Part shown: piece after piece, positions 1-64,000 of the stretch | Layout: each line of letters starts with the position of its first letter | Numbering within the stretch: the stretch's first letter is position 1 | DNA from: Octopus vulgaris | Lineage: Eukaryota | Reading direction: 5' to 3' | Assembly (NCBI GenBank): GCA_951406725.2 | Contig: OX597817.1 | Coordinates: forward strand, 89,094,001-89,158,000 | Length of the DNA: 64,000 nucleotides | Position numbers and translations under genes: made by a program | The notes under the pieces: generated by a model | Told to the model about the DNA's origin: nothing | What the model saw: the letters and a program-made list of their open reading frames with translations, nothing else | Database searches by the model: none

Positions 1-506
1 TGTGTGTGTGTGCGCGCGTGCGTGTGTGCGTGTATGTTTGTTTGTGTGAGCTTCTCTATAAACTTTCCGTTTGAAGGTTACATTTCTCTTATAATTGGAC
101 ATTACATCCAATTAATGGTATATTCTGGTGTTATGATATATCTTCCTTTCTCTCAAAGGATGTTACCCTCTCACCCCATATTCTCTCACTACAAATATAC
201 TATGTGTGAGTGTGTGTGTGTGCGTTCGTGCCACTATATATATATATATCCACACACACATGTATTTTTTGTACATATATGTGTGTGTGTGTACATATAT
301 ATATATATTTGAGCATGCGTGTTTATGTATGTGTATGTTAATTTATACGCGTATGCTTATATATGTGTATTTGTTTGTTTGTTTGTGTGTGTGTGTGTGG
401 GGGGGGGGTTAAGTGAGTGTTTTGTATGTTTGCATGCTTGTATGTATGTATGTATGTATGTATGAATGTATGTATGTACGTATGTATGTATGTATAATAG
501 ACTCAC

Positions 507-2822: not shown

Positions 2823-3145
2823 GTCATATGTGGTGTATGTGTGAGTGTGGGAAGAGTACACTGCTGCTGGATAATAAATGGAATGGTCATGGCAGAAACG
2901 TCTTTCGTCATAGGTCAGTCGAACAGCGCTGATCTGGGGTTAAACAACAGCATCTTTCTCTTTGTTTCTGTTTCTTTCTTCTTGTCTCTTTCGCCCGTTA
3001 ACGCGCGTGCGGCGCGCACACACACACAACTCGCGACGTATATACGCATTGGTTTCAAATTTTGGCCAGTAATTTCGGGGGGGGGGGGGTAAGTCGATTA
3101 CAACTAGTTTTATCGACTTCGAAAGAAAGAAAGGCAAAGTCGACT

Positions 3146-3711
3146 TCTTTGAAAGAAACCAGGGAATTGAAATGCCAACTGGACAAACAATGAGAGCGAT
3201 TGAGATAGGACAGTGGTATAAATACTTGGGAATACAGGAAACAGACAAAATAAGAAATGAAGAAATGAAACAAATGAGCTGTAGGGAGTACATAAGGAGA
3301 GTAAGAAAATTATTGCAGTCAAAGCTGAATTCCAAAAATCCTATTGAAGCAATGAATTCAAGAGCAGTACCCTTAATCAGATACAGAGTTGGAATTATAG
3401 ACTGGAGCAAAAACGATATAAAGAAACTTGACAGCAAAACTAGAAAGTTGTTGATAATGTATGGAGTCTACCGACCGAAAGCTGATATCAACTGGCTGTA
3501 CTTGAGGAGAGAACAGGGTGGAAGAGGCTTAACAGCAGTAGAAGAATGTGTGCAGATGGAAAGAAAAAGCCTAGTAGAGTATTTACGGAGCAGCACAGAA
3601 AATCTACTAAAGACAGTAAATAAAGATCAGGTGCTCAAGCGCAGGAAAAAAGGACAAGAATGAAATACAAAGAAAGCATGTCAGACGGATTGAAGAGAAA
3701 CTACTGCGTGG
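3146..3711 (+). mobile_element. R4/Dong-clade non-LTR retrotransposon fragment (RT thumb region), lying between two halves of a SINE
   Basis: ORF 3172-3663 has YKYLGI...RVRKLLQSKLNSKN...IIDW...LDSKTRKLL...LYLRREQGGRGL, typical of R4/Dong RT C-terminus. SINE pieces at ~3049-3145 and ~3712-3756. Confidence 0.85.
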
Positions 3712-4555: not shown

Positions 4556-7315
4556 ACGTAGGAAAACAGAGCGGGATTTAGTTAGAAAACTAGACGAGGC
4601 TCTTGAGGCAGGCATCGCAACCGACGTGTTGGCGGCTAGGTTGGCCCTCGATCAACACTTTGACGCCAAACACGAAAGCTGCGTTGTCAGAGGTAAGGCG
4701 CGTTCGCTAAGCGGGGAGGGGACTAAGGCCGCTTGATGGGTCCGCATGGTGGAGGCGAAGCGTGGCAACAAAGCGACCAATCTGTCTTTGGTGGACCAGA
4801 ACGGGCGCGAGGTTTCCGAACCGAAGCAGATGTGCGGTGTTTCAGCGGCACTTTGCTCAACTGTTTGGGATGAACGGTGGCACGGACAACTGGACAGACT
4901 TCGGTGTGTACCTGGACGGCCTACCGCAACTCTCGGACAGCGAGGCGGAGTGCTGCGAAAGACCGATATCTGCCTGGGAAGTGGAGGAAGCAATGAAGAG
5001 CTGCACGAGAGGCAGATCGCCGGGTTTAGATGGTCTGCTCTACTCTACGAGCTTTACACTTCAATGCCAGACTTGTTTGCGGGCTTCTCGGCAAACGTCT
5101 ACTGCAACTGGTAACAAAACGGGAGAATTCCTGCTTTTGTTTGTCGAGGAGTGGTGGATTTTCTGAGAAAGGACCCAAACAAAGGGGGTGTTATAGGGAA
5201 CTTTAGGCCCATCACTCGGCTCAATGCAGAGTTGAAGATTTTGGCCAAGGTGCTAGCCAAGAGATTGGCGCTTGTCGTGGACAAGCAGATTGGTAAGGCG
5301 CAGACATGCGCCGTGCCGACCAGGTCGATACACGATAATCTCCATCTCATGCGCTACATCATAGAGAGGGTGGGTGACGACACTGGCGCGGGTGGGGCTT
5401 TGATCAATTTAGATCAGAGTAAAGCCTTCAATAGGGTCGACCATCGATACCTGGCAGCTGTTCTCAAGGCAGCCGGTTTGTACAGCAACATCTGCTCGGT
5501 GATACGGGTGAACGGTCACCTTTCGGAGCCGTTTGACATCTCGCGTTCGGTTCGCAAAGGATGCCCTCTCTCCTCCCTCTTGTACATATTGACTCTCGAG
5601 CCATTACTGCGCAAGTTGGAGGCTTTGAGGGGTATCCCACGTGATCTAGGAGATGGAAACAGCGTGTCTGCCTATGCCGATGACGTCTCCATGATGGTGT
5701 GCCTGTGGATCGCCACAGGCACATTGACCTGATTAGCGAGACACTAAACGAGTACGAAGCGGTGACAGGTGCAAAGATTAACGCGGAAAAGTCCGTGGGC
5801 TTGCAACTGGGCACCTGGAGAGGGAAGTCCATGCCGTCCAACAGTGTCGTAGGGCGCTGGACAGACGGACCCGTTAAACTGCTCGGGGTCTGGTTCGGTC
5901 CAGACCTCCAGGTGGATAAAAACTGGGAAGAGGTGACGAACAGGGTGGCCAATCCTCACCCAGAAATGGGCCGAGAGGAAGCTGTCACTGAAAGGTCGAG
6001 CGGAGGTGGCGAATGCGTACATCGCATCCGTCATCTATTACCGATTGACCGTCGTCCCTTGTCCCGACTGCTGGTTGGCCAAGCTGGTGCGCTTGCTCTT
6101 CGACTTTTTGTGGAAGGGTCAGGTACTACTGGTCAGGAGATCCATCTACTGTCAACGGCCGCTGAACGGAGGCCTTGGAATGCCGTGGTTACTGATGCGC
6201 AGACATGCGCTCAGGCTACGGCATCTCAAGTGTTTCCTAGACGGTGAACAGGTGTGGTCATCTTTTGTCAGACGCGACTTTCCGCAGCTCGTCTCTTTGA
6301 CAGAGTTGCAGTCTTGGATCAAACGCAGACCGAGACAGGGCGCTTGGCACCTCGAGTGCCGTCAAGCTCTCTCCGCCCTCCACCAAGCGGGCAATGCGAT
6401 CGGTGGTGGTTCCACTCTAGCGTTCTATAGAGGGTTAGTGGAAGAAAAGTTCGACGACGTTCTCGTGGAAACTCTAGGCGTTGACGATAACGAGCTAAAC
6501 AGTCTGTTCGGGAGAAATTTCGGGCCGGGGCCAATGGATAATTTCCAAAGGTCTCTCGCCTGGCAGTGCTACCGAGGGGCTCTGCCTGTTTGGGATAAAC
6601 TCTACTGGCACGGAAGTGCCGTCAGACGGGCCTGCCTGAGGTGCGCCCAGGACGATGAAACCGTTCTGCATGCACTCGTCTAGTGCCCGAGTATTGTTGA
6701 ACTATGAGTTTATGTCGAACAGCTACTGTCGCGTATAGGACGGATCCAGCTACCAGCTGAATCCATAGTGAGGATTGCCCCGCCGACCTCCTTTAACCGG
6801 GAGGGCAAGGTAGTTTTCCTTTGCCTAGTGGCTGTAGCGAAAGAGGTGATATGGTGGACCCGTTTGAAAGGGCTAAGGTCAGACACTTTCCTCTTTGGCC
6901 AAGGCCTCATCAACTTTTTCAAGTTTCACTTGAAAAGGAAGAGGAGAGTAGAGAGGGAAGTGATGTCTGGTAGCAAGTTTATTGCAAGATGGGTGAATGT
7001 CGCAAGAATGGCCAGTATGAACGGACCAATTCTGAGGATACACCTGTGAAAATTAAAAGGAAATATAAAAGGAGAAAGGGGCTCTCTACCCCCTTTTGAC
7101 CAGGCTCCCGTTGGCTTTTATGGTTTTTTCCACGAGTAACCTTTCGAAGCGCCTCCTCCTATTAAGAGTTTTAATTGTTACTTATATTTCGTTGTTATCT
7201 TGCTTTTGAACACGGACTTTTTTGAAACGGACAAAACCCTTTGTAACTTTCGTCCTGTGTTTTGTCCCTTTATGTTTTAATTGATTTTTGTTAGCCCTTG
7301 TGGCCAATAAACGAA
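4556..7315 (+). mobile_element. 5'-truncated Tx1/L1-group LINE with frameshifted ORF2 (RT plus CCHC knuckle), inserted in a (TTA)n tract
   Basis: Motifs SPGLDGL, NFRPITRLNAELKILAKVLAKRL, LDQSKAFNRV, VRKGCPLS, AYADDV, KLLGVWFG, GGLGMP, CLRC...ETVLHAL. 3'UTR with AATAAA near 7306. (TTA)n on both sides (4385-4555, 7318-7375). Confidence 0.92.
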
Positions 7316-19460: not shown

Positions 19461-19515
<55 letters not shown>

Positions 19516-19586
19516 AAGCAATTAAGATTCAAGTAAATTCCAATGAATTTACTTGAATATATAAATGTCTAGAGAACTCATATGTA

Positions 19587-19677
19587 TTTTAGCTGATGAG
19601 TACGGGACACTTTTATCTGCTGCAATTTTTGCAACTTGTAATAAAGCCTGTCTTTGTATGAAACAATTGTACTAAAA
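19587..19677 (+). ncRNA. Type I hammerhead ribozyme with long stem II, inside a ~195-bp (TA)n-flanked insert (19513-19707)
   Basis: TTTTAG-CTGATGA-[GTACGGGACA...TGTCTTTGTAT]-GAAA-CAATTG-TA-CTAAAA. Canonical core, 6-bp stem I, palindromic stem III, predicted cleavage after 19671. Confidence 0.85.
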
Positions 19678-19706
19678 ACTAATCCATTCTTGTTGCTTCT
19701 TTCTCG

Positions 19707-19739
<33 letters not shown>

Positions 19740-21528: not shown

Positions 21529-22402
21529 CAGGGTGCAGTGAATATATTGTCGTCTAAATTACGCATCAAAGGAAAATAACACTGACATCTCATTTTAACA
21601 TATATTTACCAAAATTACATAAAAATACTTTTAAATACTAAAGAGTGAATTTATTCAATAAAATTGCCATTGGATTCAACCACAGCCTCCAGACGACTTC
21701 GGAATCTCCTGCAACTCTTCTGGATGGTCTCCGTGTTTAAGTTGGTCGATGCTGCCATAATCTTTGCTTTCGGTTAATCTTTGGTGTTTCAAGGAGTTTT
21801 GTTGGTCTCTCGCTCAACTCCGCCCCATACATAATAATCAAGGAGTTTGCAGTCTGAGGAATTAGATGCCCAAATGTTAGGGATGATGTGGTCGCAGAAA
21901 TTGTCTAACAGCCATGACTGTGTTCTGCTTGTGTGGCATGGTGCAGAGTCCTGTTGCCAGACATAGGGACTTCTAGCAGGCACCCTCTCGATCCAGGGCA
22001 GCACTGCCTCCTCCAGGCATTTGTTGTAGGCCTCCGTGCTGAGTCTGAGGCTGTGTAGGAAGATGAATGGAGGCATAACGTCGCCAGTACTAGTGATCGC
22101 TCTAAACACCATGTTGTCGATTGGATGATTTTTTATCATTCTCAGTAGATGCCCTCAGTTTGCACTGTCCTCAGATTGACACCTAAACACTCTGAAATGT
22201 TCGTATTGGAGCTTCCGGCGCGAATGCCAAGCAGCACAGCATGTCGTTTCCAAATTTCTGGCAGAGCAAATTTATCATGGTGCTGTTTTTCTCAAAGACA
22301 GTGCCCAGCTGATCCTACTATATTGTATAGTCGACAAAATAAAAAACAAGCAATGCGCATGCGCGGAATTAAAAATGTCAACAATTTATACATCGCACTC
22401 TA
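21529..22402 (-). mobile_element. maT (DD37D, Bmmar1-like) Tc1/mariner transposon, internally deleted
   Basis: TA-flanked TIR CAGGGTGCAGTGAA. Transposase motifs YVWQQDSAPCHT and IW..NS.DC..LDYYVWG. Second copy at 42744-43605. Confidence 0.88.
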
Positions 22403-24959: not shown

Positions 24960-26115
24960 CCTTCTTGGTAAGGAAAATAGTTTTCATTTAATCTTGACTC
25001 TTTTTCTTTCTCAACAATATTGGTATACAAAATTCGTACCCTTACGAAAATGATAACCAAACTATGTTGAGTGATTTTCTCGTACGAGTACAAACTGGGT
25101 CACTCTGTCGCAGAAGCTCAACGGAATATCAAGCGGGCCTTTGATAATGGTTTTGCTGACATCAGAACTGTTCAGAGATGGTTCCAAAGCTCTCGTTCAG
25201 GAGATGATAGCCTTGAAAATAAACCAAGAGGTAGGGCAAAATTAGTTATTAAACGCTTTGGTTGAACAAAATCAGAACAAAGGTTCGAAAACTTTTATCA
25301 GAACTCCAAACATCTCGAACAACTGTTTTTGGACACCTACAAAAAATTGAAAAAGTCAAGAAAACAGAGAGGTTTGTTCCACATCAACTGAACGAGATTA
25401 AAAAAAAACACAGACGCCTCGAAGTGTGCTCGTTATTGTTTTCTCGACTGGGAAAAGACCATTTTTGCATCAAATCAGTACTTGTGATGAAAACTGGATA
25501 GTCTTTGGCAATAGCAGGAGAACAGGACAGTGATTAGATGCAGGAGAGTCACCTAAACACTAACCAAGCCTTACATTGTACCCTAAAATGTTAGTGGTCA
25601 CTGTATGGTGGTCTGCGAAGGGAGTTATTCATTGTTCATTTTTGCAACAAGGAAAAGCGGTAACAGCAACATCGTATTGTGAGGAAATTGATTGTATGCA
25701 TGAGAATTTGCAAAAGAAGCAACCCAGACTAGTGAGTAGAGATGGCCCAGTTTTGCTCCACAACAATGCACGTCCTCACACTCCTCAAGCTACAGTCCAA
25801 AAGTTACAAAGCCTGAATTATGAGATTTTGCAACAGCCTCCCTATTCCCCTGATATCTCTCCTACTATTCACTTATTTAAGCATTTTGAACTTTTCATAA
25901 GCAACAAAACATTCTTAAATAAAGAAGAAGTAAATGAAGCATTCGGACAGCAAAAGATGATTTTTTTTTTAAGATGGAATATATGACATGTAAAAACTTT
26001 GGGTAAACGTCATAAATGAACATGGATCATACTTTGATTAAATAAATCAGTTCTCTAACACTTCTGAAGCATTTTATTGTTACCTTTCAAACACATTTCA
26101 TGTGAAACAACCTGA
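24960..26115 (+). mobile_element. Decayed mariner (DD34D) transposon
   Basis: Peptides YEYKLGHSVAEAQRNI...TVQRWF...SLENKPRGR, FVPHQL, DENWI, VTVWWSAKGVIH, LLHNNARPHT and PPYSPDISP. Mariner-like 3' TIR ...AACAACCTGATA. The 5' limit is approximate. Confidence 0.9.
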
Positions 26116-26850: not shown

Positions 26851-27037
26851 CACACACATATGTATATATATACATATATATAAAATACAAAATGGGACAA
26901 GAACGCAAAACATCCGGACAGCTAGGTGATACAAAAAGGGACAACAAAACATCCAGATAGACTATACACAGAAAATAAGTACGGGTCATTCGAAGTTTTT
27001 TTTCTTCAGTCAAGCACCAGATTATCCTCGCAATTTC

Positions 27038-27100
<63 letters not shown>

Positions 27101-27105
<5 letters not shown>

Positions 27106-27731
27106 ATACAGTATACGTTCAAACACAAAAGAGATACCCGAAGAATAGGATATCTGACTCGCTAGAAAGAGCAGTTAAAACTCCAAGCCACCAATTGTTG
27201 TAATTCCGAAAGTGATTGAAAAATAAAAAACTTTTACCTTAATCCTAGACTCTGCAAGGTTTCTGCAGACTTAAATACAGACTGAAATAAGATAATTTCA
27301 GTCTATATCTAGCACTGCGTCCTCAGTAGGTTGCCAAGACTGAATCCATAGACATGGATCTATAAGTAATCAGCCACGTGTTCTATTTTTTCGAATTTAC
27401 CGCGCAGATGCGGAACTTAATCAGCACTAAATAAATAAATTGCCGATTTTCCTCCAGAATTAGCCAAAAAAACATTTTATCATTAATTAAAATCTTAGGG
27501 TAGCAAGAATATTCATCGAAAAATTCTTAGTGGTAGACCACATGGAGTTTTAACTGCTCTTTCTAGCGAGTCAGATATCCTATTCTTTGGGTATTTCTTT
27601 TGTGTTTGAACGTACACTGTATTCTTCTCTGAATAATATATAGTCTATTGACTAAATTTTCTTTCTCGCTAGACCACTGGTAACTAAGAATTTTTCGATG
27701 AATATTCTTGCTACCCTAAGATTTTAATTAA

Positions 27732-27736
<5 letters not shown>
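27101..27736. mobile_element. Head-to-head, circularly permuted HHR element (family F3)
   Basis: A (27101-27185) is inverted at 27543-27627. D (27478-27530) is inverted at 27684-27736. Flanked by (TA)n(GA)n and (TA)n. Same family at 63713-64000. Confidence 0.85.
27244..27330 (-). ncRNA. Type I hammerhead ribozyme, canonical core, GUC site (F3)
   Basis: Minus strand CCTA-CTGAGGA-cGCAG...TAGACTGAAAT/ATTTCAGTCTG...CTGCa-GAAA-CCTTGCAGAG-TC-TAGG. Near-palindromic stem III. C-A mismatch at the base of stem II. Cleavage between 27248 and 27247. Confidence 0.82.
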
Positions 27737-27801
<65 letters not shown>

Positions 27802-28340
27802 CAAAATCAAAATCAAAAGAGGCAAAATATATTTCACTGTGAGTTATATAAGGTGTGAGCATTGGAAGAATGTGCTTACATTCTTATTTAATGCACAGTG
27901 AGTCTTTGTTATATTTCAATATATATTTAAATCTGCATGTGCTTACGCGTGTGTGTATTTGTGAGTGTGTGTGTGTGTGTGTGTACTTGTGAGTGCATGT
28001 GTGCGCGCGTGCGTGTGTATGTATATATGCGCGTGTGTGTGCGTGTATGAGTGCTTAAGCGTGGCTGTGTGTGCGCGCGTATGTGTACGTGTGTACATGC
28101 ACCTAGTAATATTGTTTTTTTTTATTTTGATAATTTTAGCCTTTGAGATATTTTCTCGCCATTTAAGCTACACACAGACACACATGCACACATACACATA
28201 CGCATATATAAGTTCATACACACACTCATATATACACACACATACACACACCTGCAAACACACACACAGACACATATATATATACACAAACAAACAGAAA
28301 CACACATGCATACACACGTTTATAGACACACACACACACA

Positions 28341-28374
<34 letters not shown>

Positions 28375-28711
28375 AGTACATACACATATATAGCTGGTTA
28401 GGTCTACTGATAGATGTACCTTTCTTCTTTTGTTTTTGTTACCAAATTTCATTCTGTAAAGACTCATAGAAATATAAGCTTAAGATGAATCACATCTATG
28501 ATTGTTTTGTGGGTCAACAGATTTGATCCCCAAATTGTAGGTCAGTTCTTTTGGCATTTGTCCAAAACTTTTTATATTTTGGTACTGGGTTCTCTTAGGA
28601 ATTAGTAGACAGAATATAATCTACAGTCTGGCACATACATTCAATAAATAGATTAGATTCATTGTTTATATATGTCAATGGATTTAGACAACTAGGCGTA
28701 TACACACATCT

Positions 28712-28771
<60 letters not shown>

Positions 28772-29095
28772 ACACGCACACACGCATACACGCACACGCA
28801 TAGAGAAACACATATAATGGGAATAACTTTTCTTTAAAATATGTATTCAAAACACGACTGTATCTATATTCTAGGCTAAACTCATTTTTTTGATATTCTA
28901 TATCAAGATTTCATCATGTTTTCGTATGGTTTCTTTGCTGTTTGTTTGGAAACATCTCTGTTCCAAATAAACTGCAAGAAAATAATTTGAAAATATGATA
29001 AAAATTTGATAAAAAGTTAAATCTAGAACATAGACGTGCTTTCAATCAAAAGCTATTCACTTTACATACATAATAGATACATATCTTTATCTATG

Positions 29096-29206
<111 letters not shown>

Positions 29207-29390
29207 GTCTGTCTGTCTGTTTGTCTATCTGTCTGTGTAGCTATATATTTATTCACAAATGCATGCACATACATACATACATACAGACAGACAGACAGAC
29301 AGACATACATACATACATACTTACACGCACACACACATACGTATATACATATACATATACATATTTATATTTCATATTCATATAAACAGG

Positions 29391-29427
<37 letters not shown>

Positions 29428-29432
<5 letters not shown>

Positions 29433-29675
29433 AAACAAGTCAAGATAGAATATGCTAAAATAATTTTATAAAGAACATTTCAGTACCGGTTTCGGTCATT
29501 TTGAGACCTTTTCAACTGTAACGATTAAATAATTAAATTCAGAAAAATTAAAAGAAAAGTTTTTTTAAAGGAATATTTGTACAATGTTCACATATAAGTG
29601 GCATTTTCCTTGTTTCTGCCTTTGCCTGTCTCTCTTGTTTGCACTTGTGTGTTCGAGGTCGTTGTGAATATGAAT
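29428..29675 (-). mobile_element. Family F2 copy without fold-back, including U3-A8 HHR at 29476-29523
   Basis: Matches 22918-23085, then continues into different upstream sequence. Stem II is perfect GGTC/GACC. 3' end lies in (TA)n. Confidence 0.82.
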
Positions 29676-30119
29676 GTATATATAGATACAAACAGACATA
29701 CGAGTGGGTGTTGAGAATTTACTGGCTTTGGGTAATACAGGAGGATTAGTTAATTATGGTTCTTTTCAAAATATTCTCCTCTCAGATTCACACACTTATT
29801 GCAGCGGCCCTTCACACACTTATTGCCAGCAGGCCTTTCACGAGATCCTTCAAGCCAGGAATTTTCCAGCATCCCCTCGTGTATATATTTTCTTTTATTC
29901 TCTTATACGTTTCAGCCCTAAAGCTGTGGAAAGTATTTATGCTGTGATAGGAAATTATAAGAATGTAAATACCTTACTTCTCTCCTTTCAATATATTATG
30001 GATAAACACACACAGATATATATGTGTGTATATATACATACATGCGCATATAAATACATATATGCATACATACATAAATACATACATACACACGCACATA
30101 ATATATATATATATGTATA

Positions 30120-30164
<45 letters not shown>

Positions 30165-30539
30165 TATATATATATATGTATATATATATGTCTCTTTTAC
30201 TCTCTCTTTTACTTGTTTCAGTCATTTGACTGCGGCCATGCTGGAGCACCGCTTTTAATCGAGCAACTCGACCCGGGACTTATTCTTTGTAAGCCCAGTA
30301 CTTATTCTATCGGTCTCTTTTGCCGAACCGCTAAGTGACGGGGACATAAACACACCAGCATCGGTTGTTAAGCAATGCTAGGGGGACAAACACAAACATA
30401 CACGCACACACACATTTACATATACATACATATATACGATGGGCTTCTTTCAGTTTCCGTCTACCAAATCCACTCACAAGGCTTTGGTCGGCCCGAGGCT
30501 ATAGAAGACACTTGCCCAAGGTGCCACGCAGTGGGACTG

Positions 30540-30618
<79 letters not shown>

Positions 30619-31547
30619 CTTGGTAACGAACTGAAAGTGCTTAACACCGGATGGGTGTGTAAATAGATGGAACATCTCGTCAAATATGACGCCTTGACTT
30701 TGGCGCGCTGAGATCGGAAATTACTCTGCAGTTAATAAACTACAGCAGTTAATTTACCGGCTAGAGAACATTTTTTAAAATTTAAAATTAAATGAGGGCA
30801 GAGACTGATATTAATCAATTAAAACCAGTGGCCTAGCATATTTTAAAAAAAATCCGAAGATTGAAAATTTTATACATACAAAATTTAGAGGAATGACCAC
30901 TAATAGTGGACAGCCTGTATGCTAGATATAGACGTCAAACTCGCCATTTACCACGAAGAATGTGTTCTCAAGATTAAATTCAGCAAAACCAAAGTTTAAA
31001 AATAATACAAATGAAAATATACGAAAATAAGAAACGATTTCAATCTACGGATTTAAAAAAAAATATGCTAGGCCACTGGTTTTAATTGATTAATATCAAT
31101 TTCTACCCTTATTTAATTTTAAATAAAAAATGTTCTCTAGCCGGTAAATTAACTGCTGTAGTTTATTAACTGCAGAGTAATTTCCGATCTCAGCGCGCCA
31201 AAGTGAAGGCATTTGAAAGATACACATAATATAATTTGTGGAGCTTTATACATGCTGGATTCGGCCGAGCGCCCTGTATCTAGTTCTAGAAATTGTATTT
31301 CGTAAACGACAGCCTACGCTGACGATCTTGCAGATATACGTAAATATTAACAAGTGAAACTAATTAGTACGTAGGTAATCGTTTCTTATTTTCGTATATT
31401 TTCATTTGTATTATTTTTAAACTTTGGTTTTTGCTGAATTTTTTCTTGAGAACACATTCTTCGTGGTAAATGGCGAGTTTGATGTCTATATCTAGCATAC
31501 AGGCTGTCCACTATTAGTGGTCATTCCTCTAAATTTTGTATATGTAT
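30619..31547. mobile_element. Head-to-head permuted HHR element (family F4): A-B-A'-X-HHR-B'
   Basis: 30691-30866 is inverted at 31038-31210. 30872-31039 is inverted at 31377-31547. TA repeats at both ends. Confidence 0.85.
31313..31375 (+). ncRNA. Type I hammerhead ribozyme, canonical core (F4)
   Basis: CCTACG-CTGACGA-tCTTG...CAAGt-GAAA-CTAATTAG-TA-CGTAGG. Perfect 6-bp stem I, palindromic stem III, U-U at the base of stem II. Cleavage after 31369. Confidence 0.88.
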
Positions 31548-31553
31548 ATATAT

Positions 31554-31585
<32 letters not shown>

Positions 31586-32290
31586 TTACTTATATATATA
31601 TATATATATATATGTACGTGTGTGTGTATATATACATGCACACGTATATGAATGCATGTATGCATGTATGTATGTATGTTTCATTAAAAAGAAACTTTTC
31701 TAGATTTTAAAAATACTTCATTACTAATTTCAATACATTTAAATACGATGAACATACCGTCGTTATTGATAGCACGGGAATACTAATATTACACACATGC
31801 ACACGCGCATATATATATACACTTATACACACATATATATACACACGCACACACACAAACATACACAGATAAAAACACACACGCATACACACACGCACAC
31901 ATAATCGTATATGTATAGTTAAATATAAATATGTATATATATGCATGTATGTAAACATGTATGTATGCATGTTTGTATGTATGCATGTATGTTTCCGTAT
32001 GTGTACGTGCTTGTTGTACGTTCATGTTTGAGTCTGCATGTGTATATGTATGTGTGTGTGTGAGTGTATGTGTGTGAGTTATTTATGAATTTTGGTGTAA
32101 AAAGAGAAGATAAACAAGGAACATTAACTAGAAACTGAGAGACGTCGTACAAGAAACAGCCGATGTGTCAATGAAACTATCTTGTTTCCAACACGGATTC
32201 AACAAATGTTAATTTATTTGCCCCCAGTCTTTGTCCAACTGTGAATGTTAAATGAGGAACTGTGAAACGAAGGAAGGAGAAAGAAAGAAA

Positions 32291-42743: not shown

Positions 42744-43605
42744 CAGGGTATGATGGGTAAATTGTCGCCATTTTGCATTATTAATTTCGTGCATGCGCAT
42801 TGCTTGTTTTTGATGTTGTCGACTACACAATATAATTGGGTCAGTTGGCACCGCCTTTGAGAGAAACAGCACCATGACGCAATTCACTCTGCCAGAAATT
42901 TGCAAACGACATGCTGTACTGCTTGGCATTCACGCCGGTAGCTCCAATACGAACATTTCAGTGTTCGGTTGTCAATTTGAGGCCATCTACCGAAAATGAT
43001 AAAAATTAAACATACAGTCGACATCATGGCGTTTGGAGTGATCATTAGTGATCGCGACCTTATGCTTCCATTCATCTTCCCACACGGCCTCAGACTCAAC
43101 ACAGAGGCTTACATCAAGTGCCTGGAGTTGGTAGCACTGCCGTGGGTCGAGTGGGTGGCTGTTGAAATACCCTATGTCTGGCAACAGGACCTGCCCCATT
43201 CTACACAATCAGGAGAACCCAGTCATGGCTGTCAAACAATTTCTGCAACCACATCAGCATATCCCCAGTCCATATCCCAGACTGCAACCCCCTTGATTAT
43301 TACGTGTGGAGCGTAGTTGGGCGAGAGATCAACAAAACTCCTTGTAACACCAAAGATGAACTGAAGGCAAGGATTATGGCAGCATTCACCAACTTAAACG
43401 AGGAGAGCATCCAGAAGTGTTGCAGGAGATTCCGAAATCGACTGGAGGCCGTGGTTGAAACCAATGGCAGTTTTATTCAATAATTTACTTTTTTGTATTT
43501 CAAGATATTTTTATGTAATTTTGGTAAATATATTTGTTAAAATAAGATGTCAGTGTTATTTTCATTTTTACGTAATTTAGACGGCATTTTATTCACTGCT
43601 CCCTG
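42744..43605 (+). mobile_element. maT (DD37D) transposon, internally deleted
   Basis: TA-flanked CAGGG TIRs. Peptide PFIFPHGLRLNTEAYIKCLE...PYVWQQD. Homologous to 21529-22402. Confidence 0.88.
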
Positions 43606-51456: not shown

Positions 51457-51825
51457 ACTAAAATAATAATGGTATATATAAATGATATAATTGTATAAGA
51501 GAACAAGAAAAACTCATGCTCCAACATGTAAGAATACGCCAAAAACGTTATAAAACCACCTCTAGCTCCTGCAAAAATACGGGTTGTAGATGAGCAAATG
51601 AAAACTACAAAATAAAACTCCACAGTCACTTGTGTATTGGACCAATACACAAGTGACAGTGGAGTTTTATTTTGTATCTTTCATTTGCCTGTCTACAACC
51701 CGTATTTGTGCAGGAGCTAGAGGTGGTTTTATAACGTTTTTGGCGTATTCTTACATGTTGGAGTATGATATTTTCCTGTCCCCTTATATAATCATATAAT
51801 TCATATATATAATTATTATTTTAGT
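51457..51825. repeat. 369-bp palindrome with a 1-nt spacer, next to (TA)n
   Basis: Centre ...GTGTATTGG-A-CCAATACAC... at 51641. 184-bp arms stay colinear to ACTAAAATAATAAT/ATTATTATTTTAGT. Confidence 0.92.
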
Positions 51826-57968: not shown

Positions 57969-58554
57969 AAGGAAAAGAAGAAAATGCTGACAAAATAATT
58001 TAAGTAAGGGAGAGTGTATTTAATTAGATGAAAGTTCTTTTTTTAAACAAAAAAAGAGAAAAATTGGGTTAGAATACAATGTTCATTTTTTGTGAATGAT
58101 TTCAGTGTATAAGAAAAAAAGTAAGTCTTTTACAGTGTTCTGTTTCGGAATAAGATATTTAGTAAAAGCGTGTAATATACAGTTTTTTGTGGAAAAGTTC
58201 AATGTCAGATTTCAGTGTAGAATAAAAAAAAGTAAGAGTTTACCGGTTGCGCATTTGTTATGCTTATCAAAAGATATTTTGAGTGAGATAGAGTTCCTTT
58301 CTGATTGATTTTTTCTCTTATCTGACTTTATGTTGGGTTTGCTGTCTCTTATATGTGAAAAAAGAGGCTCCAGAGTTGTTTAAGATTTGCTTGGTTTCGC
58401 GCCTAAAATTTCTTGTGGACAATGGTCAATACAATTTTGATTGGTCCTTGTAAAGGGGTCACGTGAATGTTTGAATGGAATTTGGTGTTGGGGTAAGAAA
58501 ATAGGCTCCAGAGATGTTAAACACCAACACCAACTTCCATTCAAACATTCACGT

Positions 58555-63334: not shown

Positions 63335-63712
63335 CTTTTTCTTGTTTACATATTTTGCTACTTTTTCCCTCGTTCGTCTACGTATTTCATGTTGTTTGCA
63401 CTGTATATATATATACATATGCACACATACATATTTATAAATATATATATATATATGTATATCTGTGTGTGTGTGTGTATGTGTGTGTGTATATTATTCA
63501 TTATGTATTATTTAATTGAATGCGACGCAGATCTAGCCCTTCTGATTCGCAAAATGAGCCCCCTTTAATTTTGCACAGATTGCTTTCAGTTTTGGTGTAT
63601 CAATGCAACTCTGAATTTTGATTACTTAAATTAAAGAATCTGGTGTTATTTGGAATTAAAGTTGAAAAATTTATATATATATATATATATAAATTTGAAA
63701 AATTTATATATA

Positions 63713-64000
63713 TAATTAAAATCTTAGAGTAGCAAGAATATTTATCGAAGAAATTCTTAGTTACCAGTGGTCTAGTGAGAAGGAAAAAATTAGTCAATAG
63801 ACTATATATTATTCAGAGAAGAATACAGTGTACATTCAAACAAAAACAGATACCCAAAAATAGGATATCTGACTCACTAGAAAGAGCAGTTAAACTCCAA
63901 GGTAAAAGTTTTTATTTTTCAATCACTTTCGAAATTACAACAATTAGTGAGTTGGAGTTTAACTGCTCTTTCTAGTGAGTCAGATATCCTATTATTTGGG
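63713..64000. mobile_element. Second family F3 head-to-head insertion (runs off the window end)
   Basis: (TA)n-D-E'-A, then a strand switch at ~63899 to C'-A'. Homologous to 27101-27736. Confidence 0.85.

Follow-up and report, generated by a model that had tools for sequence, protein, structure and literature searches.

The question raised by this locus is whether the ends of an inserted repeat can record the activity of a ribozyme. The window, i.e. the whole stretch of 64,000 nucleotides of Octopus vulgaris DNA that was analysed, is AT-rich and packed with microsatellites and interspersed repeats. Two of these repeats, F3 and F4, carry a predicted type I hammerhead, and each has one insertion arm that begins a few nucleotides past the predicted cleavage site. 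The sequence-only reading of the window proposed that reverse transcription had run to the 5′ end of a self-cleaved RNA, which would be a genomic trace of ribozymes active in vivo, and that the ribozymes define the ends of the elements. Offsets are given relative to the predicted cut, and the base immediately past it is +1.

Inverted arms of two related repeats

The F4 locus is formed by two arms. The short, inverted arm (30691..31039, minus strand) starts at +8..+10, and its homology to the long arm stops at about +356; it aligns with the long arm in two blocks, 31039–30871 with 31377–31548 (96.5%) and 30866–30691 with 31038–31210 (92%). Its 71-nt continuation (30620..30690, minus strand) resembles the long arm in the first ~15 nt only, reaches a TA/TG microsatellite and is either a sister variant or host flank. 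The long arm (31038..31541, plus strand) starts at about +182, passes through an intact predicted ribozyme and ends in a TA-rich microsatellite (31541–31548). The junction reported earlier as GTA^CGTAGGT|AATCGTTTC is reproduced by the alignment: with the cut placed after 31369, base 31039 at the start of the minus arm corresponds to 31377, that is to +8, and the match continues from there. The arms have the dinucleotide TT in common at the head-to-head junction (31038..31039), and this 2-nt microhomology gives the start range of +8..+10.

F3 is represented by two loci. At the 27-kb locus the long arm (27098..27531, minus strand) starts at +203, also passes an intact predicted ribozyme and ends at +150 in (CT)n. 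It is followed by an 11-nt filler (27532..27542), 8 nt of which repeat element sequence close by in inverted orientation, and by the short arm (27543..27736, plus strand), which extends from +63 to +256 and ends in (TA)n. At the 63.9-kb locus the minus arm (63712..63901) starts at +61..+64 and ends at about +256 in a TA-rich tract, and the plus arm (63899..64000) is cut off by the end of the window. The second reported junction, GTC^TAGGATT|AAGGTAAAAG, is likewise correct: the F3 cut lies on the minus strand after 27248, and base 63899, where the 63.9-kb plus arm begins, corresponds to 27240 (+8), the 3-nt microhomology AAG giving a start range of +8..+11. The two arms of the 63.9-kb locus are identical at 48 of 49 aligned positions, whereas identity between this locus and the 27-kb copy is only ~90–91%, so that the F3 loci are separate insertions. 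The arms at 27543 and 63898–63901, with starts at +63 and +61..64, both end near +256 and may point to another favoured breakpoint. A single master copy as the source of the +63 inversion was rejected, since the loci have different partner arms and the similarity of arms is higher inside a locus than from one locus to the other.

At both complete loci the short arm runs on into the opening sequence of the long arm, which means that the unit is circularly permuted; its size is ~486 nt in F3 and ~515 nt (about 513–515) in F4. No stop-to-stop frame of at least 110 aa is present inside either unit. F3 and F4 had been taken for unrelated families, and this view has to be given up: they align over 142 columns with a score of 51 (the best of 200 shuffles reached 42), and their TA-joined 3′ ends align with each other and are homologous. 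A 14-nt motif common to both repeats is present at all four expected places. The head-to-head layout with 3′ ends outward is found at all three loci, and four of the five visible outer arm ends adjoin simple repeats, the fifth reaching one after a 71-nt spacer. Arms joined 5′-to-5′ with short microhomology are products of Penelope-type retrotransposition, and judged from their sequence F3 and F4 look like ~490–515-nt non-autonomous Penelope-type, retrozyme-like units. Both the element type and the inverted-arm layout belong to kinds already known. One F4 and one F3 motif searched in metagenome contigs gave 0 matches each.

In the accessible parts of the reports on animal non-LTR retrozymes (Cervera & de la Pena 2020, PMC7229834; Li et al. 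2026, bioRxiv 10.64898/2026.07.22.740005), these are described, in agreement with F3 and F4, as short AT-rich non-coding units with one type I hammerhead, head-to-tail joints and high copy number, and the terminal repeats of Penelope-like elements (PLEs) are proposed as their origin. However, they are smaller (~170–400 nt vs ~486 and ~515 nt) and form arrays, whereas in the window F3 and F4 occur as arms joined head-to-head, none of them longer than one unit. EN+ PLEs, as far as the accessible text goes (Arkhipova 2013, PMC3846280; Craig 2021, PMC8557442; Frangieh 2024, PMC11167929), share with F3 and F4 the inverted 5′-truncated arm placed head-to-head, the hammerhead upstream of alternative internal 3′ ends and the AT-rich or microsatellite targets. 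Unlike these elements, F3 and F4 are known here as non-coding copies devoid of an ORF for a telomerase-like RT or a GIY-YIG endonuclease, and the difference between the 3′ ends of the two arms (106–177 nt) is longer than the 30–40 bp tail of PLEs.

Predicted hammerhead ribozymes

The F4 hammerhead (31304..31384, plus strand) is predicted to contain a stem I with a distal (31304–9/31379–84) and a proximal (31312–18/31370–76) helix, the core segments CUGACGA (31319–25) and GAAA (31356–59), a stem II and a short stem III. Its fold has a z of −1.81, with 11 of 200 shuffles equally good, and the three-helix fold is adopted when the core is kept open, at a cost of 1.0 kcal/mol. The F3 hammerhead (27241..27330, minus strand, core CUGAGGA from 27326) has in the 27-kb copy a long stem II, a 1-bp stem III and a 4-bp proximal stem I; its z is −3.63, but the minimum-energy fold of the monomer differs from the hammerhead fold. 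The core order of type I is present in both motifs (CUGACGA/GAAA/GUA in F4 and CUGAGGA/GAAA/GUC in F3).

A scan for type I hammerheads on both strands gave 3 motifs in the window vs 6 in 30 Markov-shuffled windows. The Rfam search gave no match at the gathering score, and no Rfam hammerhead model matched the F4 or the F3 motif at E ≤ 5 in the scanned region 26900–31700. The conserved G10.1–C11.1 pair, which is usual but not universal, is absent from both motifs, its place at the base of stem II being taken by U.U in F4 and by C.A in F3. According to the accessible text of PMC7229834, U.U at the base of helix II is tolerated in the active axolotl hammerhead HHR_Amex2.

Variation of stem I within the F4 family can be seen in public sequencing contigs. 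For 4 of the 24 runs listed, contigs were aligned on F4 31040–31540 only (1156–2849 pieces per run). Position 31313 is A in essentially all depth in all four runs, which leaves 5 bp of the 7-bp proximal stem I of F4; the explanation of the +8 offset by a 7-bp stem I as a property of the family is thereby rejected. The stem I partners 31317 (C>T, 29–54% of depth) and 31371 (G>A, 88–91%) also vary; these variants are unphased, and both are located at CpG sites.

A third hammerhead-like element lies between TA runs at 19514–19709 (plus strand), with the core at 19593, a predicted cut after 19671, the 3′ end at about +38 and a 14-bp hairpin near the 5′ end; its fold (z −0.03) is no better than those of shuffles. 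A 13-mer from stem II of the F3 ribozyme (27301–27313) recurs unchanged, but in opposite sense, at 31484–31496, which is 115–127 nt downstream of the F4 cut; it may be a chance match.

Arm starts relative to the predicted cut

Six arm starts are available at the three loci: +8..10 and +182 at the F4 locus, +63 and +203 at the 27-kb F3 locus, and +8..11 and +61..64 at the 63.9-kb F3 locus. Only two of the six are thus close to the cut. The nominal probability that at least two of six starts fall within +1..+11 is 0.006 if starts are uniform on 515 nt and 0.024 if they are uniform on 260 nt; with a two-sided window it becomes 0.024–0.085. All these values are post hoc.

The suggestion that the ribozymes define element ends is not supported by these data. 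Both long arms (31038–31541 and 27531–27098) run through an intact predicted ribozyme located internally, so the cut does not define the ends; moreover, four of the six starts lie elsewhere and the main F4 3′ end is located far downstream of the cut. The narrower part of the proposal, a stop of the reverse transcriptase linked to the ribozyme, fares better. Such a stop is plausible given the Penelope-type 5′-to-5′ arms and two +8 starts that are unlikely under a flat null, although the other four starts do not conform to it. The best explanation, to which a probability of about 0.45 can be assigned, is that F3 and F4, as related non-coding repeats of ~0.5 kb in which a type I hammerhead is predicted, likely owe their mobility to an RT of Penelope type, and that the +8 starts likely represent a minor group of cDNA ends that the ribozyme determines and not a fixed boundary.

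It is quite possible, on the other hand, that the arm starts are ordinary variable 5′ truncations set by microhomology, two of which happened to land near the cut. The two starts were selected out of six, the two-sided P reaches 0.085, F3 and F4 are homologous, and the T/A-rich stretch past the cut provides many microhomologies of 2–3 nt. What speaks against chance is that both starts, although from independent loci, have +8 as their smallest possible offset.

The contigs bear on this alternative as well. They show presence, not absence, and the sequencing runs listed (best share of words 0.42) include none of RNA. F4 is seen in them as a high-copy repeat with head-to-tail units: the joint 31540->31042 is found in three of the four runs, each contig covering only a part of the unit. 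The main F4 3′ end, at 31125 and followed by (TA)n, is represented by 39, 30, 24 and 39 contigs in the four runs and lies ~270 nt past the cut; a joint end in one contig, at 31130, is 5 nt past it and is a single case. Among the 15 of 32 joints listed, 7 link opposite strands (+198/+59, +203/+109, +204/−95, +274/+59, −79/−35, +20/+61 and +60/+113); the head-to-head orientation is forced in three of them and assumed in the rest. In the breakpoint test that had been proposed with the original claim, none of these 14 ends, which range from −95 to +274, is called at +1..+11, as expected for chance truncations; the test is weak, since 15 of 32 joints are listed, 25 filler rows fall outside them and the alignment is poor in this very region. 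Indeed, between 31380 and 31430 the alignment of this copy with the family is poor and contig depth is about 5- to 60-fold below that of neighbouring bins; the sensitivity of the test is low at just the place in question. Up to 40 letters may be concealed per joint, and the window's own junction, which serves as the positive control, is absent from the joints listed. If one third of the ends were at +1..+11, the probability of at most one in 14 would be 0.027; if 15% were, it would be 0.36. A dominant sharp breakpoint peak just past the F4 cut is therefore somewhat disfavoured, a minor one being compatible with these counts.

The opposite-strand joint 31389–31430 is present in three of the four runs. 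Its end at 31389 coincides with a common one-base indel of the family and could correspond to a start anywhere in +8..+20. Family alignments break on this copy at 31428, with loose ends in 47, 30, 8 and 26 contigs. The clusters of F4 joint ends at +59..61 and 31054–31060 were rejected as real breakpoints, both being at alignment edges. At 31218–31229 many family contigs stop aligning and continue in a way unlike the long arm, as the short arm does; this divergence is either a sister variant or a link to a longer, possibly autonomous element.

Possible origin of the starts near the cut

In the preferred explanation, a minor class of ribozyme-set ends, cDNA would be primed at AT-rich nicks from RNA sites that lie 150–270 nt, and in one case ~356 nt, beyond the cut, and its synthesis would run toward the 5′ end of the RNA. 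On an uncut or re-ligated template the cDNA would pass the ribozyme and yield a long arm; the intact ribozyme in both long arms shows that such RNA gets copied and that the cut is not an obligatory end. In self-cleaved RNA the first 5–7 nt would stay paired in the proximal stem I, and cDNA synthesis would end at +8..+10, in the internal loop of stem I, which may be why the start is at +8 rather than at +1. The cDNA end would then be joined via 2–3 nt microhomology to a second cDNA or would fold back on itself. A ribozyme-linked stop of this minor kind is plausible from the sequence, with exact +8 starts in both F3 and F4 in its favour; against it, neither start is at +1, and the loss of 7–10 nt requires an extra step.

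A precedent is provided by the HDV-like ribozyme of R2 (Eickbush 2013, PMC3774820), whose cut, according to the accessible text, makes the template's 5′ end and marks genomic 5′ junctions, the junction type correlating with the cut site. Slightly truncated 5′ junctions were also observed with a ribozyme-capped R2 template (accessible part of PMC11331408). However, R2 represents another ribozyme and another element class, and it is cut at or upstream of the element 5′ end, whereas the cut of F3 and F4 is internal and often read through. The accessible part of PMC11167929 describes the only reconstituted PLE system, that of the anole, which did without cleavage: ribozyme mutants inserted normally in vitro, no RNA-seq reads started or ended at the cut, and the enzyme nicked and extended both strands, starting internally. 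In the accessible texts searched (including PMC6765202), no study was found that maps the 5′ breakpoints of PLEs or retrozymes against the hammerhead cut site, though Fig. S2 of PMC11167929 may bear on it; the accessible part of PMC13282606 does not mention hammerheads. For the role of the hammerhead in PLEs, any assembly could supply in vivo evidence at little cost if its breakpoints were seen to peak just past the cut.

A more specific variant of the preferred explanation, rather unlikely at present, is that the F4 insertion keeps both processed forms of the RNA, one arm coming from the self-cleaved linear monomer (+8) and the other from one passage round the re-ligated circle. The F4 long arm measures one unit minus 4–9 nt; on a tandem unit its start lies 4–9 nt downstream of the point where its 3′ end falls, hinting at a circular template copied in one turn round the monomer. 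The chance of such a fit for at least one of the two long arms is ~0.04; this is a single case, the F3 long arm being 53 nt short of the full unit. The accessible text of PMC4209133 proposes a circular monomer as template, as well as hammerhead cleavage and circularisation in PLEs, without in vivo evidence. If the F4 insertion did keep both forms, head-to-head junctions would preserve, across the genome and in countable form, fossil traces of the cleavage and circularisation of hammerhead RNAs in the germ line.

It is improbable that the structure itself, without any cleavage, sets the +8 starts, that is, that the RT stalls on the ribozyme while this is folded but uncut (proximal stem I plus tertiary contacts) and the junction records folding only. 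In the predicted F4 fold +8..+10 is the internal loop of stem I, at the edge of the proximal helix, so that a stall there fits without a cut, and the long arms prove the use of uncut or re-ligated templates. Besides, PLE hammerheads cleave poorly in vitro (accessible part of PMC4209133), and the anole PLE mainly uses unprocessed RNA (accessible part of PMC11167929). Yet the enzyme gets past the structure in both long arms, and stronger hairpins elsewhere in the unit are not accompanied by a junction in the window.

Very unlikely is a different fixed point at about +60 (a transcription start or the landing site of a fold-back), with +8 being the partner end of a 40–55 nt fold-back loop. Self-priming has indeed been proposed for head-to-head PLE junctions (accessible text of PMC3846280). 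In F3 the starts at +61..64 and +63 belong to two independent arms, and 4 of the 14 listed F4 joint ends are called at +59..+61, but this grouping in F4 may reflect an alignment edge produced by the break at 31428. Starts are 41–53 nt apart in 4 of 10 junctions, for which the post hoc P is 0.001, but 0.19 if any distance of up to 60 nt is admitted. Moreover, a simple fold-back cannot yield the long arms, which extend beyond their partner arms. Classical twin priming from a single RNA gives arms that abut and is rejected, the arms here overlapping by 50–350 nt instead.

Several other features of the window should be mentioned. No significant homology to F3 or F4 was detected, in 5 pairs tried, for the third hammerhead-like element or for a near-perfect palindrome at 51457–51825 (184-nt arms, 90% complementary, 1 nt between them, left end in (TA)n). 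This palindrome has the appearance of a head-to-head insertion whose two arms begin at one and the same base; a ribozyme-bearing parent is absent from the window. An imperfect inverted repeat at 58461–58554 adjoins a (TAA)n run. Judged by eye from the translations, broken frames of non-LTR retrotransposons with RT-like motifs are located at 4711–7049 and 3073–3663, and mariner-like transposase fragments at 21789–22154, 25564–25986 and 42981–43316.
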